A stretch of 64,000 nucleotides of DNA, taken from NCBI RefSeq assembly GCF_054482525.1, contig NZ_JBTHVG010000004.1; one strand, 5' to 3'. The translations under genes and the position numbers were made by a program. The notes under the pieces were generated by a model that was not told the origin of the DNA, ran no database searches, and worked only from the letters and a program-made list of their open reading frames with translations. This DNA is from a plasmid. Numbering within the stretch: position 1 is the first letter of the stretch; every line of letters starts with the position of its first letter. Shown piece after piece: positions 41,302 through 49,014 of the stretch.

Positions 41302-42116
41302 CGGGAGCCTCCTTCAGTGCCTATAAGCGGACGCCAGTGAGATTTCTGAAGATTGAATTCCGCATGATTTTTAAGGCGACGAACACGATCTCCAGTGACC
41401 AGTTTTTTCCCGTCACCTGTAACGGTTTGCATTTGATCAGAAACATCCGGACGGGTGATCATGCCCTGACGCCAGAGAAGTGAGTACAGCATCATGCCCC
41501 GGTAATCACGGGTGAGGGTTTTCTGGTTGGCTTCAAGCGTCAGGTCGGCGTTTTGTCTTCCTTCCTGCCATCCCTGCCGTAATGCGGTTTCCCACACTTT
41601 TCGTTGCACGCTGTCTTCTGGAACGACGCTGCCTTCTGTACCCGGAGTGGCTGTTGTTGAAAGCCCCCGGAGAAGCCAGTCACGCCAGCCCGGTGGATTG
41701 CTGACAAAGCGTTCAGGGCGAATGATGGTCCAGACCCGGGAAGAGGTCCGGATTTGATCTGGCGTGATATGAGCTACGTCCTGTGCTTCATCAATAACCG
41801 GTGGTAGCCAGCCTTCCGGGCTAATCAGTGGCCGGAAATCGTATAAGGCATTAAGTGTGCTTTCCCGGGCGTTGAGTGCCTGAATCAGCTCCCATGAACG
41901 CTGAGCCTTGCCACCACGAAATCCAAGCGTTTTACCTGCGTCGGTCAGCATTTTCCAGCGTGTTTCTGACAGACTATCCGGCTTTTCACTTCGTGGTTTA
42001 AGCCATGCATTAATGTCAGGTGGTGGCGTATTGACACCACCTGGCGAGATGGTAGGGGAAGAAGAACAACCAGTAAGCAGTATTACTGGCAAAATGAGAG
42101 AGGTGAGTGCTTTCAT
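41298..42116 (-). CDS. traI: TraI lipoprotein (DotC-like)
   Basis: 272 aa with lipoprotein signal (LTGCSS). Confidence 0.75.
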   Translation of the reverse strand: MKALTSLILPVILLTGCSSSPTISPGGVNTPPPDINAWLKPRSEKPDSLSETRWKMLTDAGKTLGFRGGKAQRSWELIQALNARESTLNALYDFRPLISPEGWLPPVIDEAQDVAHITPDQIRTSSRVWTIIRPERFVSNPPGWRDWLLRGLSTTATPGTEGSVVPEDSVQRKVWETALRQGWQEGRQNADLTLEANQKTLTRDYRGMMLYSLLWRQGMITRPDVSDQMQTVTGDGKKLVTGDRVRRLKNHAEFNLQKSHWRPLIGTEGGSR

Positions 42117-42571
42117 TTTTTCCGGTTCTCCGGCTGCATGAAGCTGACCTGTAACAAGCCCGGATATTGATGGATTGTTGCTCTCCAGGCTGTCTGGGCT
42201 TCAATAAGTCTCAACGTATTGGAAAACGTCATATCCCGGACGTGAAGGTTGACTGGTAACGGCAGGCGGACACCATTGTAGTTAAACTGCATCCCCCTGA
42301 CTCTGGCCAGTTCGTTCAGTAATTCAATTGCATCACCTTCCCAGTCAAAGGAAAGGCGATCGCTGTTAGCTGTCAGAAGATGAGACCCCGTTGAAACCGG
42401 AAGTTGGCCGGAAAACACACCTTTGTCCCATAATGTGTACTGAGTGTGCCGGGTAACCGCCACATCAGAGGCAGCACCGTAGTTACGCGGAACAGGAGTA
42501 TGCTGAGAAGGGGAGTTGCAGCCAGCCAGAAAAAGGGCGGCAAGACACCCCGCAGGTATAATACGGTTCAT
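42113..42571 (-). CDS. traH: TraH lipoprotein (DotD-like)
   Basis: 152 aa with lipoprotein signal (LAGCNS). Confidence 0.7.
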   Translation of the reverse strand: MNRIIPAGCLAALFLAGCNSPSQHTPVPRNYGAASDVAVTRHTQYTLWDKGVFSGQLPVSTGSHLLTANSDRLSFDWEGDAIELLNELARVRGMQFNYNGVRLPLPVNLHVRDMTFSNTLRLIEAQTAWRATIHQYPGLLQVSFMQPENRKK

Positions 42572-42780
42572 AATAATTCCTGAGCAGTTAAATCAGAATG
42601 GGATATACCGGTGCTCCGGTACAGACAGGATGATGTTTGTTTCCGGCTATACTTGCGTTACCGGAAATAAATGCCAGTGTGGCCAGGTAAATAGCCTCAT
42701 AGTTTACTGAAGGTGATTATTCCTGATACTGGCTGGTTGATGTGTCGTCAGACATAAAACGAATATGAGCGTAATCTTTA

Positions 42781-42915
42781 ACGCTCCGCGCCGAATCGAT
42801 CCATGATGGATGACTCGACGATTTATGAATCGAACGTACCGGCGCTTGTCCCTGAAACAGTTCCCGGCCCTCGTCCGGATGACCTGCAATTCAGACAGGC
42901 ACATGTGCCCGTACA
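42781..42915 (-). promoter_or_regulatory. conserved tra-region element, copy 1 (mini-ORF MDRFGAER)
   Basis: Shares a 5' core AACGCTCCGCGCCGAA-CGATCCA and a 3' block (CTGCARTTCWGACRG) with copies at 62171..62300 and 63233..63365. Confidence 0.45.
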
Positions 42916-42965
42916 CTCTTGTATCTTACTGAGTATATCAGAATTTATGTAAATTCAAATATCCT

Positions 42966-43550
42966 CTATGCCTCTTTGTTGTATTTTCCGTCAAGTATGA
43001 GCCGGGTACCATCGTAATGCATGATCAGGGCATCAAGGTACGCCGGTTTGAATTTCTTGCCGAGCCTATCTCTGGCCAGAAATGATAAACAATGATTATG
43101 TGTCATTATTACTATGTTCCTTTTATGAGATTCTCTTGCGATTGATTCAAGCGTCTTATAAAGATCATTATTGCAGTCTGATAAACTGTCCATAACGACG
43201 GGGTCTTTACCGGAGAAGAATTTTGCAGTTTGTATGGTTCTTACCGCATTGCTGGAGTAAATATCATATTCACTGAAGATTGTTGCGAACTTAATACCTT
43301 CCTGCTGTGCTTTCTCTGTACCGGTAATAGTGATTCCGCTTTTATCCGAATAGCATGGCATATCTGAACGGTCGCAACGTTCTCCATGGCGGAAAAGGAA
43401 AATAACGGTGTTATCAGCATTAATTTCTTTTGCCTGTTCTAGGGTGATATCGGGAAGCGAGCTTTTTGCTTTTGTCACTGCAGCTACCAGGAAAACAGAA
43501 AATAAAAGAATGAATGCTGTCTTTGAATAAGAAGAACGTGGTTTCATCAT
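42966..43550 (-). CDS. traG: TraG-position protein, histidine-phosphatase superfamily, secreted
   Basis: 194 aa with signal peptide and RHG catalytic motif (FLFRHGER); AT-rich; gene symbol assigned by position only. Confidence 0.55.
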   Translation of the reverse strand: MMKPRSSYSKTAFILLFSVFLVAAVTKAKSSLPDITLEQAKEINADNTVIFLFRHGERCDRSDMPCYSDKSGITITGTEKAQQEGIKFATIFSEYDIYSSNAVRTIQTAKFFSGKDPVVMDSLSDCNNDLYKTLESIARESHKRNIVIMTHNHCLSFLARDRLGKKFKPAYLDALIMHYDGTRLILDGKYNKEA

Positions 43551-43609
43551 GTTATTTAAAATGAATATAAAAATACCCCCGGGTTTAGTGCCGGGGGCGG
43601 GGACAGTAA

Positions 43610-44812
43610 TCAGAAAGTGAACTGAAGTTGTGCCATTGCACCGTAATCGTGGTCAGTTCCTACCAGGCCGGAAACATCGATATGTACGACGTCAAATGGA
43701 GAGATACCAACGCCAGCGGTGAAGGCGCTTCCGGAGTTTGATGCCATGTTCTGACGATAACCGGCACGCAATTGCGCCCATTTCCATGCGTTAAATTCAG
43801 CACCAACACTTGCAAACTGACGTTTGCTGTCAGAAGTGAAGCCACTGGCAGGAGTCAGATCAACGTCAAGAGCAGTGGTAAACAGGTCATTATGCCAGGA
43901 TACACCGGCGGTTGCCTGTGGACGAACTTTGAAGGTTTCTTTAAAGCCATTGACGACTTTAGTATCAATACTGCGTGGAATGATGTTCTGGGCAACAAGA
44001 CCGACAGTCCAGTTGTCATTCAGGTCTGTATAAGCACCAATATCGGCGTTGAATCCGTTTTTCGTGTTGTGGTACTTGTCACCGTCAAAATCGTCTTTGT
44101 CGTAATCACGAACCGTTACGTTGTAGTTAAACAGGTCCACACGCTGATATTTTGGTGTGACGCCAAGAGACCATTTTTGTCCGGCCGTTTCCAGTTCTTT
44201 GGCAAATGAAATTCCGACGTCGGTAATTACAGCTGCACGCCCGAATGCGCGTGAGGTCAGGGCATTCTTATCGACGTCGGTAATTGTTCCATTGGCAACT
44301 TTGTCCAGATAATCCAGGTCTGCATCGTTTACTTTTCCGTTTACGCTGACAGTTCCGTAAGACTTGACCATAAGGGCAAACGGCAGAGTGTCATTTGCCA
44401 TGGCTGCTACAGCTGATACACCTACCTGAGCATCTGCATTGATATTGCGGAATTCCTGCAGACGATGTTTAAGATTTGCCGCTGCCTGTTGTACGCCATG
44501 CTGGTTATCTACAGCACTGTCAAACAAATCCCAGTCATCTTTAACATCATCAGCTTTATTTGATACATCATCAGGATCAGCAACTTGTGCCCCAACAGAC
44601 GGCAGAAGAAGGCTGAAATCATCATTGCTGTTGTGCTTTGTCAGTAAAGCCGGGTTTGCCAGAGGTGCCACACCATAATGGGAAGATGCTACCCCGGTGC
44701 CACCCATTGCATCGTTACGCGCTTCAAAATATGACGTTGCTGCTGCAGCGTTAAAGGAAAATAATACAGCAGATGCAATGATGGTGCGGGTAATATGATT
44801 TTTCTTCATCAT
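43610..44812 (-). CDS. traF: TraF outer-membrane beta-barrel protein
   Basis: 400 aa, signal peptide, C-terminal aromatic residue (…QLQFTF) typical of beta-barrel OMPs. Confidence 0.65.
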   Translation of the reverse strand: MMKKNHITRTIIASAVLFSFNAAAATSYFEARNDAMGGTGVASSHYGVAPLANPALLTKHNSNDDFSLLLPSVGAQVADPDDVSNKADDVKDDWDLFDSAVDNQHGVQQAAANLKHRLQEFRNINADAQVGVSAVAAMANDTLPFALMVKSYGTVSVNGKVNDADLDYLDKVANGTITDVDKNALTSRAFGRAAVITDVGISFAKELETAGQKWSLGVTPKYQRVDLFNYNVTVRDYDKDDFDGDKYHNTKNGFNADIGAYTDLNDNWTVGLVAQNIIPRSIDTKVVNGFKETFKVRPQATAGVSWHNDLFTTALDVDLTPASGFTSDSKRQFASVGAEFNAWKWAQLRAGYRQNMASNSGSAFTAGVGISPFDVVHIDVSGLVGTDHDYGAMAQLQFTF

Positions 44813-44897: not shown

Positions 44898-45722
44898 TTA
44901 CCAGGGTAATAAAGACGTATTAAATAAGCTAACAGGTAGTATTTGCCCTGTAATAAGGTTTCCGGCAAGGCCAGGTCTCAACGTAACGCGTCGCAAAGAC
45001 ATTGTTGTATTCTGCCTGGTTGTATATTCAGTTAACCATTTTCTTTTTTCATCGTTCAGAAGTGTTGGTGATAATGATAGTGCCGGATATATTACAGAGC
45101 CATTTATTTCTTTTTCCTGTCTCAATATTACCCCGCAATATTCTCTTTTCGTGTTTCCTGCGAAGGGGAAACTATGCCAGAAAATAACTTCAGTGTTGCT
45201 GCTATTATTAATAAGCATTCTGAAATTATCAGCAGTATCTGGCCATTCACCGGACAACGCTATCGGATAGTTTTCATGGCCATTCAGCCAGTCCGGATTG
45301 AGATTAAAACATTCAGCAAGATGTTCGAGAGCGTCAGCTGAAAGATAGTCTGCAAGTCTGGCCGGGTCCTGTATAACCGTGGAGCGGATATTCCATGGCG
45401 ACAGCAATGTTGCCAGTAATGGCGCATTTATATCATGCGACAGCATGATGTATTCAATTCTGCTTATTATGTTTCCTGTGGTGTTATCCGCAGGCATAAA
45501 CATATTATGAAGAGCATCCTCAAGCAGGATTCGGGTTAAATCAGCGGTGGATATGGCTAATTGTTCGCTCATTATCCCCAGAACTTCTCTTACCCCTTGT
45601 GGGTAACGGACCTGCAGAGGTGTCGGGTTTATCTGACGACCGTTGATGAGTTTTTCGCCGATTGCTTTTTTGTCCAGCGAGAGCATCATTCGGGCCGCAA
45701 TACCGGTCGTATTCAGTCTCAT
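44898..45722 (-). CDS. traE: TraE
   Basis: 274 aa, first gene of the block downstream of rci. Confidence 0.6.
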   Translation of the reverse strand: MRLNTTGIAARMMLSLDKKAIGEKLINGRQINPTPLQVRYPQGVREVLGIMSEQLAISTADLTRILLEDALHNMFMPADNTTGNIISRIEYIMLSHDINAPLLATLLSPWNIRSTVIQDPARLADYLSADALEHLAECFNLNPDWLNGHENYPIALSGEWPDTADNFRMLINNSSNTEVIFWHSFPFAGNTKREYCGVILRQEKEINGSVIYPALSLSPTLLNDEKRKWLTEYTTRQNTTMSLRRVTLRPGLAGNLITGQILPVSLFNTSLLPW

Positions 45723-45872: not shown

Positions 45873-47027
45873 TTACAGCGGGGTGCTGCCCGGGTTCAGA
45901 GGGCAAATCATAATGTAGTCAGGGTCGTTAACAGGTAACGCTCCGGGAGATGGGACACGTTCGCCTTTCTGTGCTGCAATGGCCAGTGTACGCAACAAAA
46001 CCTCACTGGCGCGGTGAACTGCTTCCTCTTTCGTTGTGGCAGTGACGTGAAGGTTATCAAAATCACCGATCTCAATACGATGCGCTTTCTGCCCATTTTC
46101 TTCATCGATGGTCGTGATATGGGCAGGATACGGCACAAACCATGCTGCCACTTTTTGTGTCTGCCGCCGGCGGGCATCAAGCTTACTGACCAGTTGCCAT
46201 GCACGAAGATGAGTATACCGTTTCAGCATATTCATGGAACGATGTCCTGATATTGCAGCAATCTCCATTACATTCAGGCTACCCAGTTCGAAGAAGCGGC
46301 TTATTGCTTCATGCCGTAGATCGTGAAAATGCAGGTCCTCGATGCGAAGTCGTTGTGTGGCTATTCTCCAGGCATTTTTAAAGCCGGATGCGGTGTAATC
46401 AAAAACATTGCCGTGGAGATTAACGGGCATCATCTGAAGAAAGTTACGGGCACGTCTGGACAGAGGAACATCCCGTGAGTGACCGTTTTTGGTTTCAGGT
46501 AAATGAGCCACACCGTGGCGCAAATCAATGTGTTCCCAACGTAAGGCCAGTATTTCGCCCTGCCGCATGGCTGTTTCAAGGGCAAGATGGAAAATGACAT
46601 ACAACATCAGATTTTTTTCGCGGAAATAGCGAGAAAGGCGACGTTCTTCTGAAGACGTTAGCCGACGATCTCGTCCGGAGGATACTTTCGGCTTGCGAAC
46701 CAGTTCAACCGGGTTAGTACGACAGGTTCCCCATTCAACACGAGCAATATTGAACAGAGATGACAGAAGGGCGAGTTCAAGACGTACAGTATTACCTGTA
46801 ATGGCTTTACCCGTTCGGGGGTTGATTTCTGCTAAACGAACGTCTCTGTATGTAGCAATATCAACGGTTGTTATTTCGTCCATATTCCGAAGGGCAATGG
46901 GATATCGCTTGATAACATTGCTCCGGTAAAACTCCTGTTGATGCCCTTTCTTGTGAACAGAAACTGTTTTCAGGTACTTATCCAGTGCGCGTGACAGGGA
47001 CATTTTACGGATGCGTGGAGACGGCAT
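45873..47027 (-). CDS. rci: Rci shufflon-specific tyrosine recombinase
   Basis: 384 aa from the internal Met ([20 protein letters not shown]...); integrase-family catalytic residues (R...HDLRH...Y); adjacent to sfx repeats. Confidence 0.9.
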
Positions 47028-47077
47028 GCTAACCTCAAAAGAGGAAAAAATAATGCCAACAATCATTCTCTGCAAGC

Positions 47078-49014
47078 GTGCCAATCCGGTACCTGGCGTA
47101 AAAGCAATTCTGGTAGTACGGTGATAACTGGTCGTATAGCAAATGGTCAGCAAATACCGCTGCCAACAGGATTTTCTGCCAGTCAGTGCTCATGGAGTGT
47201 GAGCAATGCAGAAAACCCTCAAGGTTGGAAGCCGAATTACTTTGCTGGATCAGTTGCAACTTATGATGCAAATCGAATTGTTAAATGTGGTTTTTATGAT
47301 GAATACAATTTCCATAAAGGGACATTTAGAGCTGATTTAACCGGAAAATGTAGTTATGTCGTCGCGTGTCAGAACTGAGATTAAATTGCTGGCGCTGCTG
47401 GCCTACGTGCCAATCCGGTACCTGGAGAAAGGTAGGATCTGGTGAGCTTCAAATTGCTACAGCACAGGCGACAGGTTGGCGCTTTCCTGGAGCAACAGCT
47501 ACCTGTCCAACTGGAAAACGTGTTACAGGTGGCGGCGGAATATGCACCTCACGAACTGGTTACATATGGCTTACCAGGTCATTCCCATCAGCCAATAACT
47601 CATGGTCGGCTGCGTGCGATACAACCGAAGATCAGAATGGTTCAATAACTGTATATGCCATTTGCCAATAAGCTATTTCAAGCAAGTAATCTTCATAAAG
47701 TAGGACGAATACTGTGTGTAGTTTTTGGCTTGCCAAGTCATCTCGCCGTTAGAGTCAGGCATGTCAATAGGAACGACTTCTGTTTCTGCCATTTCACGCC
47801 CGTCAATACGATAGGTGTTAATACACAGTTTAAACCTCCCTAAGACCTGTGTGTTTTTGGGATATAACGTAAATGTTTTTATATTCGTCCATATCGACGC
47901 TGATGATGATTTCCAGGTACCGGATTGGCACTGGCCTACGTGCCAATCCGGTACCTGGGGCGCTCCTAAAACTCAATTCACAACGCAGACCTACAACATA
48001 GCTAAAAACACTCGTAATTTAAGGCTCGGGGTCCATGCATATTGCTCATGGACTTACCTGAATGGCTCACCCTTTGGTGGTTTTCAACAGGTATATTCCG
48101 ACCAAAACAACGTTTGGTATGTGAGTAATTATGCTTGGGGAAATTATGAGTCTGGTGGGACCATATCAGTCACATGCCTCAATCTTCCTGGTGCTGGAGT
48201 TTAATTAAAGGGGCAACAGTAGGCATCGACATGTTCCTCATCAACACCATCACCAATACCGTACATGCGTGTTCCAGTCATAATGTATCCAGTCGGACAT
48301 TGAATCGGCTTGTAATAGATCGAACCACCACTCTTACCGCCGATAAAGTGATTCATTGCTACGGATGATTTGTACCAATTACATGCTGAGTAATTAATTT
48401 TATTACCCCCTGACCACCGACCGGATTGGCACGTAGGCCAGTGCCAATCCGGTACGTGGAAGACTTCTGGTTCGCTCAATGGTTCTTACACAAACTTAGG
48501 TTCACATAGAGGTTCATTCTCAGGGCGGAATTCAGGGGGCAGTACATTGTTTATTTATGCATCTGGAGGTAATGGAGGATCTGCCGGAGGTGCATGTGCA
48601 AATACATCCCGACTGCAGGGATATGTTGGTGGGACGCTAATTAGCGTGAATGCCAGCAATAACCCTGCATATGGAAAAACAGCCTTTATCAGCTTTGCTG
48701 TACCTGCAGGTACTTCCTATCAGATAACATCCTATCCAACAGAAAATACATCATGTGGTGCCGGGGTATTTTCAGTATTTGGATATCAAACTTAATTGAG
48801 CGTTACACACGACGCAATACAACCTGTCTTATGCTCGTATTTGTACCATTTACGTGAACCTGCTGGGCTCTCAACTACCTGGCAGTAGTGGGCATCCTCT
48901 GCGTTGCCCATTCTGGCAATGGCACAGAAGTCGAATTGCCCCAGATAACCTGTGGTGGAAAGCTGAGTAACTTTGAGTTTTCCACCTATTGTCCTCCACG
49001 TACCGGATTGGCAC
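47078..49014. mobile_element. shufflon multiple-inversion region with seven 19 bp sfx sites
   Basis: sfx core GTGCCAATCCGGTACNTGG at about 47078, 47408, 47940, 48441 (one orientation) and about 47913, 48413, 48996 (inverted); each encodes C-Q-S-G-T/R-W and is followed by alternative PilV C-terminal reading frames on both strands. Confidence 0.9.

Follow-up and report, generated by a model that had tools for sequence, protein, structure and literature searches.

The transfer region of IncI1 plasmids carries, between traF and traH, a gene (traG) whose product is, as judged by profile, alignment and tree, a predicted member of the Ais/PmrG 'LPS core heptose(II)-phosphate phosphatase' subfamily of histidine phosphatases and not an orphan phosphatase. 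Our comparisons show, as far as sequences can, that the gene is intact, selectively maintained and accessory to the transfer machine, and we consider it moderately likely that TraG dephosphorylates the inner-core heptose in the manner of PmrG, which would give the plasmid control over a reduction in the negative charge of the core. Plasmids of the IncI1 group rank among the main vehicles of ESBL and AmpC genes in E. coli and Salmonella, and the finding poses a puzzle, namely why a putative editing enzyme for the LPS core should be encoded on a plasmid that makes pilus adhesins for that very core. Public annotation already gives the gene, its place in the region and its family label (R64 traG; RefSeq and older annotations), and the novelty at the sequence level is low because the family assignment is already in RefSeq; full-text literature searches returned no functional study of IncI1 TraG and no traG phenotype on record. 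What is new here is the recognition of traG as an exchangeable accessory cassette, the purifying selection acting on it, the fact that a sister I-complex plasmid does without it and the finding that no PmrA-box-like site lies in front of it.

The traG locus

The DNA analysed here, referred to as the window, is a stretch of 64,000 nucleotides from a plasmid (contig NZ_JBTHVG010000004.1), and the coordinates of the features discussed below are collected in Table 1. Among the open reading frames of the window, traG is a 194-codon frame with an ATG start, located between traF, encoding an outer-membrane beta-barrel protein, and traH, the first gene of a Dot/Icm-like block. This block continues 3' of traH with traI (PF16932, T4SS_TraI), labelled as DotC family in some plasmid records, and with traJ, which by Pfam encodes a T2SSE-family secretion ATPase. 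On the other side of traF lies traE, for which a Pfam search returned no family. A gene at the equivalent position in pN537 carries the label traG, and the R64 TraG protein (NC_005014.1, 99096-99680) differs from the window protein by a sole substitution, D116E; gene order and the R64 match therefore identify the gene as traG of an IncI1 plasmid.

Two further observations concern the surroundings of the gene. The traG-traH spacer contains a 70-aa frame with a GTG start (42704-42916, minus strand), which lies in the least conserved stretch, returned no family in a Pfam search and is probably not a gene. In K-12 (L002, 4734-6621) ais is found two genes from yfaZ, encoding a putative porin, and the plasmid traG adjoins the barrel gene traF; this likeness is probably a coincidence.

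Table 1. Coordinates in the window of traG, its functional elements and its neighbours
Feature	Position	Strand	Basis
traG CDS, 194 aa, predicted exported Ais/PmrG-subfamily histidine phosphatase	42966..43550	-	ORF list; His_Phos_1; NF011945; comparison with Ais and R64
Residues 1-28 (MMKPRSSYSKTAFILLFSVFLVAAVTKA), predicted Sec-type signal peptide or signal anchor	43467..43550	-	Hydropathy; sequence; AlphaFold
RHG motif: R54, nucleophile H55, G56	43383..43391	-	Translation check; alignment A1; aligns with RHGE of a SixA-like protein
R104, second phosphate-binding arginine, motif SSNAVRTIQTA	43239..43241	-	Invariant in A1; aligns with SSSAIRTRQTA of a SixA-like His_Phos_1 protein
H151, second active-site histidine, motif THNHC	43098..43100	-	At least 90% of A1; aligns with the GHNP histidine of a SixA-like protein
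G+C-rich, terminator-like hairpin with T-tail between traF stop and traG ATG	43575..43598	-	Hairpin scan
traG-traH spacer, 394 bp, part of the exchangeable tract	42572..42965	-	Sliding identity, window versus L003
Divergent 'cassette', traG with both spacers, approximate extent	42550..43640	-	Sliding identity, window versus L003; per-gene dS
traH, downstream neighbour, DotD-family lipoprotein, first gene of the Dot/Icm-like block	42113..42571	-	PF16816; traH label in pN537 and R64
traF, upstream neighbour, TraF_2-family outer-membrane beta-barrel	43610..44812	-	PF13729, E = 4e-73
traE, 274 aa, upstream of traF	44898..45722	-	ORF list
rci, upstream of traE	45873-47153		ORF list

Family, fold and catalytic residues

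Membership of the histidine phosphatase superfamily, read by the initial annotation from an RHG motif that is indeed present as R54-H55-G56, is borne out by a profile search: TraG scores 34.7 bits against Pfam His_Phos_1 (PF00300, branch 1; cut-off 21.7, E = 1.9e-8). Within the superfamily the protein is placed by NCBIfam NF011945 (PRK15416), which it matches with 294.5 bits (cut-off 142), residues 1-192 being aligned to profile positions 4-200 of 201; on the same scale K-12 Ais reaches 391.9, Ais orthologues 340-392 and island paralogues 187-212. In a BLASTP comparison TraG and K-12 Ais (b2252) are 43% identical over 164 aa with a single one-residue gap (E = 5e-51), and in a neighbour-joining tree the TraG clade is found among the enterobacterial members, next to the clade of Ais orthologues. 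The family is small: a profile-free exhaustive search of 1.8 billion representatives yielded 131 proteins at E <= 1e-3 and 13 at E <= 1e-30.

A second profile, NF052369 ('PmrG equivalog', cut-off 170), gives TraG 123.7 and K-12 Ais 145.8, and is passed only by P0061 (209.4), a 230-aa protein of another clade. The sub-threshold score of TraG was considered as an argument against orthology and set aside as uninformative, since K-12 Ais (L002, 6022-6621) fails the profile too; the profile appears to have been built on a non-enterobacterial group.

Conservation was scored on a family alignment of 63 sequences (A1), in which H55, C59, C66, G72, R104 and C126 are invariant and R54, E57, R58, D60, S62, T150, H151 and C154 are conserved in at least 90% of the members. 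The subfamily motifs RH[GA]ERCDRS and THNHC and the four cysteines of the family (C59, C66, C126 and C154) are all present in TraG, and the catalytic histidines and arginines (R54, H55, R104 and H151), whose absence on alignment would have spoken against the initial annotation, are conserved across the 63 sequences. No solved structure with a sequence relationship to TraG was found, and the fold was for this reason judged from an AlphaFold model, which has a pLDDT of 94.9 and adopts the alpha/beta histidine-phosphatase fold.

A predicted N-terminal export signal

The N-terminus of TraG consists of a basic n-region (K3, R5 and K10), a 15-residue hydrophobic core with a mean Kyte-Doolittle value of 2.72 and, after this core, small residues that offer candidate cleavage positions (VAA/V or TKA/K). 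In the AlphaFold model residues 10-28 form a helix detached from the globular domain. The n-region, h-region and small-residue pattern agree with the description of TraG as a signal-peptide protein in the initial annotation, the segment being predicted to act either as a cleaved peptide or as an anchor. The four family-wide cysteines would fit an oxidising compartment.

Base composition and cassette exchange

The observation that the gene is AT-rich compared with its neighbours holds, with about 40% G+C in traG and 43-53% around it. The G+C fraction of traG is 0.403, which corresponds to the 5.8th percentile of 585-nt windows, next to 0.433 for traE, 0.470 for traF, 0.512 for traH, 0.525 for traI, 0.513 for traJ and 0.491 for the whole window, and the AT bias is thus moderate. 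Values of 0.33-0.43 were obtained for all enterobacterial family members compared, including K-12 ais (0.433). Because all relatives are AT-rich, the low G+C content is best regarded as characteristic of the whole family, a gene in horizontal circulation, and not of this plasmid.

Evidence for the exchange of traG comes from an I-complex contig (L003), whose TraE, TraF, TraH, TraI and TraJ proteins are 96.7-99.8% identical to those of the window, with dS values of 0.015-0.15. Its TraG shares 72.4% protein identity with the window TraG, with a dS of 1.03 and a dN/dS of 0.157, a ratio indicating that both versions are under purifying selection. Along the DNA, sliding identity is ~100% up to the traF stop, drops to 66-94% (mostly ~70-78%) in traG and recovers inside early traH, and the traG-traH spacer is only 40-80% identical, with indels, the genes on both sides being about 99% identical. 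The sharp identity edges and the contrast in dS therefore show that traG has been exchanged, together with both spacers, as a unit between diverged lineages. As for the mechanism, a search for repeats on either side, as expected of a site-specific insertion, yielded only chance-level repeats at the locus, and the exchange boundaries fall at the traF stop and the traH start, which agrees with homologous exchange. On the same contig (L003, 1979-3832) pilV is followed by traE after ~560 bp, with no rci and no shufflon segments, making it a shufflon-less relative.

A further allele, 87% identical to traG of the window, is located on an EAEC pAA-like contig that carries dispersin, aat-type ABC genes and T2SS fragments (L015, 6817-7587, corresponding to window 43734-42964), accompanied by the last ~125 nt of traF and the intergenic hairpin. 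No other tra genes are present within the 14.6 kb examined; the locus is what is left of an I-type tra region, traG alone having stayed intact.

Two protein clusters initially suggested gene decay. The representative of the largest cluster (P0001) carries an R54H substitution (HHG for RHG), and in cluster P0002 an 18-nt in-frame deletion between short SD-codon repeats removes six residues including C66; the coordinates given for these rare alleles are NZ_CP120559.1 89827-89883 (traG; clusters P0001 and P0002). Decay was rejected since allele-specific searches revealed both alleles to be rare: R54H occurs in 1 of 1355 plasmids, yet represents the largest cluster, and the C66 segment is whole in 1353 of about 1375 records.

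Distribution of traG within and beyond IncI1

Conservation of traG at this position in IncI1 plasmids is as extensive as that of its neighbour: at a nucleotide identity of at least 90%, traG is matched by 1375 plasmid records, traH likewise by 1375, and the genus breakdown of the two is nearly alike. For TraG at an identity of at least 80% the number is ~1373 plasmids, two of them only at 80-90%, and no plasmid matches fall in the 60-80% band. Homologues of TraI/DotC are found on 3726 plasmids, 2375 of these at less than 90% identity. Within IncI1 proper, traG behaves as a backbone gene; beyond IncI1 it disappears. The IncB/O plasmid p3521 (L018, NC_014843.1) has a traE-like gene, traF and then, after 103 bp, traH, followed by traI and traJ in collinear order, and traG is absent from its traF-traH interval. 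The same plasmid (p3521, 4195-5959 and 7921-8275) is also without nuc between traK/icmT and a sogL-like gene. With traG and nuc both absent from p3521, two genes of the IncI1 'tra region' are therefore to be seen as lineage-specific inserts.

We favour the view that traG is an accessory gene that entered the traF-traH interval and that its product does not belong to the Dot/Icm-like machine. The initial annotation had left the choice between an acquired accessory enzyme and a backbone gene of unexplained function: the former description stands, in keeping with a transposon-sequencing (TnSeq) screen in which the gene is non-essential, its absence from p3521 and the cassette exchange, and the latter applies within IncI1 alone, where the 1375 records equal those of traH.

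Regulation

The G+C-rich hairpin that follows traF (CCCCCGG-N7-CCCGGGGG) has a stem conserved in three traG allele classes and loops that differ among them, its T-tail is missing in the L003 allele, and p3521 has an analogous hairpin 3' of its traF gene. The element may terminate traF transcription or act on mRNA stability. No obvious Shine-Dalgarno sequence precedes traG and no convincing sigma-70 promoter is located between the hairpin and the traG ATG, promoter-like matches across the region numbering 5 versus a shuffle mean of 7.4. With a terminator-like hairpin 24 nt upstream of the ATG and no obvious Shine-Dalgarno sequence, the expression of traG could be low. An Rfam search of the traF-traG-traH spacers gave no credible structured RNA or known regulatory element.

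Chromosomal ais/pmrG is driven by the PmrA/BasR signal. Upstream of traG no PmrA box (YTTAAK-N5-YTTAAK-like) was detected, nor was one present in the traG-traH spacer, and matches across the window are at chance level; a control scan of the K-12 ais-arnB spacer recovered a PmrA-box site with one mismatch. Control of traG by a PmrA box was rejected on the strength of the empty upstream scan and the positive ais-arnB control, and the driver of traG is probably a signal other than PmrA/BasR, as far as the upstream DNA indicates. The PmrA box and the linkage to arn characterise the orthologues on the chromosome; they do not define the protein family.

Proposed function and alternative explanations

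We propose a model in which TraG would be a Sec-exported, periplasm-facing histidine phosphatase with the full catalytic set (R54, H55, R104 and H151) that would strip phosphate from the inner-core heptose (Hep II), as Salmonella PmrG is stated to do, once LPS has reached the periplasmic side. The LPS core of the plasmid host would then be less negatively charged and differently cross-bridged whenever traG is expressed, and the chromosomal PmrA/BasR signal would have no part in that expression. What the plasmid gains is speculative: host cells might have a fitter envelope, better able to tolerate metals or cationic compounds, or surface properties that matter in mating might be altered. Dephosphorylation of heptose II of the core is ascribed to PmrG in PMC8129183, which cites Nishino et al. 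2006. RefSeq still lists Ais of E. coli as 'putative', and at 43% identity substrate specificity may not be conserved.

The location of traG within the tra cluster, co-oriented with traE-traF and traH-traJ, and the equal number of IncI1-type plasmid records for traG and traH (1375 each) would be expected if TraG helped to build the thin pilus or the type IVB secretion system of IncI1, as a structural component or an assembly factor, with a phosphatase fold that is incidental or serves maturation of the machine. We regard this as extremely unlikely, given that TnSeq of the IncI1 plasmid pESBL found TraG not to be required for transfer (Table 2 of PMC4288162: non-essential 0.79, maintenance 0.21, required for transfer 0.00). 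In the same screen TraF, with a non-essential value of 1.00, and TraE are non-essential too (PMC4288162). The loss of traG in IncB/O p3521 despite otherwise collinear traE-traF-traH-traI-traJ, the restriction of high-identity TraG copies to the IncI1 group next to the far wider spread of TraI/DotC and the survival of one allele outside a tra context all point in the same direction, as does the fact that TraG is not named among the MPF_I proteins discussed in the available portions of Guglielmini et al. 2014 (PMC4027160). Dispensability in the sole available screen could equally be claimed for a functionless passenger, a decaying remnant hitch-hiking with the tra region, and the AT-richness of the gene, its weak translation-initiation context with a hairpin just 5' and the occurrence of damaged alleles (R54H, the C66 deletion and truncated database entries), rare as these are, could be read in the same way. 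Such decay is very improbable in view of a dN/dS of 0.157 maintained across a near-saturated synonymous distance, the retention of the catalytic residues in every allele class, the rarity of R54H (1/1355) and of the deletion, whose lost segment is kept in 1353/~1375, and the retention of traG after its move to the non-conjugative context of L015.

As an active periplasmic histidine phosphatase, TraG might alternatively hydrolyse a substrate other than LPS core, such as a phosphorylated envelope protein, the head group of another phospholipid or of a glycolipid, or small phospho-metabolites. Catalysis in the superfamily is promiscuous, with SixA phosphohistidine, phosphoserine and cofactor phosphatases among the structural neighbours, TraG-Ais identity is only 43%, and the NF011945 score of 294.5 lies below the 340-392 of true orthologues. 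We consider this rather unlikely, since the entire mature domain aligns with Ais with its single one-residue gap, RH[GA]ERCDRS, THNHC and four cysteines are common to both, and the gene neighbourhood points to no other substrate. More specific is the possibility that TraG is a conjugation-linked LPS editor, in which dephosphorylation of the donor core alters recognition by the LPS-core-binding PilV thin-pilus adhesins, resulting in surface exclusion by receptor editing, less donor-donor clumping or a lower surface charge that favours mating in natural habitats. PilV adhesins of IncI thin pili use LPS core structures as receptors, and in the case of the IncI2 plasmid TP114 one adhesin needs the phosphate on Hep I, not that on Hep II (PMC10654706). 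What points to this speculative reading here is solely the co-location of traG with pilus and type IV secretion genes, and we hold it to be improbable. Of the explanations considered, dephosphorylation of the inner-core heptose by a TraG accessory to the transfer machine is the one in which we place moderate confidence.

Implications

If TraG edits the LPS core, the outer-membrane charge of every IncI1 host would be altered independently of PmrA signalling. Were this true, the change could bear on how well the cell tolerates metals and cationic compounds, on the attachment of phages with LPS as their receptor and on recognition of the cell by the LPS-binding adhesins that the plasmid itself encodes. 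On the further assumption that the LPS-editor reading is correct, the exchange of traG alleles would reflect adaptation to differing host core types, and TraG would be the first LPS-modifying enzyme dedicated to plasmid transfer ecology.

Comparison with known systems

The closest known systems are E. coli Ais and Salmonella PmrG, which, like TraG, are ~200 aa long, start with a predicted N-terminal hydrophobic export segment and are encoded by an AT-rich gene. The 43% identity extends over the mature domain, and RH[GA]ERCDRS, SS.xVRTIQ[ST]A, THNHC and the four cysteines are found on both sides. The chromosomal genes are neighbours of the arn operon, whereas traG lies on a plasmid, with traF and traH on either side; its upstream region is without a PmrA-box-like site, whereas one is present in the ais-arnB spacer; and TraG forms a separate clade with divergent alleles of its own.

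Horizontally carried Ais-family paralogues of E. coli and Salmonella resemble TraG in size, motifs, low G+C content and location on mobile DNA, and score 187-212 bits against NF011945. One of them (P0033) is found on pO157-like plasmids beside an EspP-type autotransporter, and others (P0020, P0039 and P0041) are located on islands with AraC, GrlA or PerC-type regulators. On three pO157-like contigs (L006-L008, 8001-8582) a 44%-identical paralogue has as its neighbours the gene of an EspP-type serine-protease autotransporter and two genes for alpha/beta-hydrolases, so that virulence plasmids are a recurrent location of LPS-phosphatase homologues. The paralogues differ from TraG in that they are 38-59% identical to it and that none lies in a conjugation cluster, TraG being the sole tra-embedded branch found.

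SixA and other small branch-1 phosphatases (PDB 1ujc, 2rfl and 1h2e) are more distant, with 13-20% sequence identity to TraG. SixA is cytoplasmic, acts on the phosphohistidine of a signalling protein and has neither a signal sequence nor the conserved cysteines. A functional parallel is offered by msbB2/lpxM of pO157 and Shigella pINV, a second lipid A myristoyl transferase. It differs from TraG in acting by lipid A acylation and not core dephosphorylation, in belonging to another enzyme family and in lying outside a transfer operon; like traG, it is a plasmid copy of a chromosomal LPS-modification function placed under its own control.
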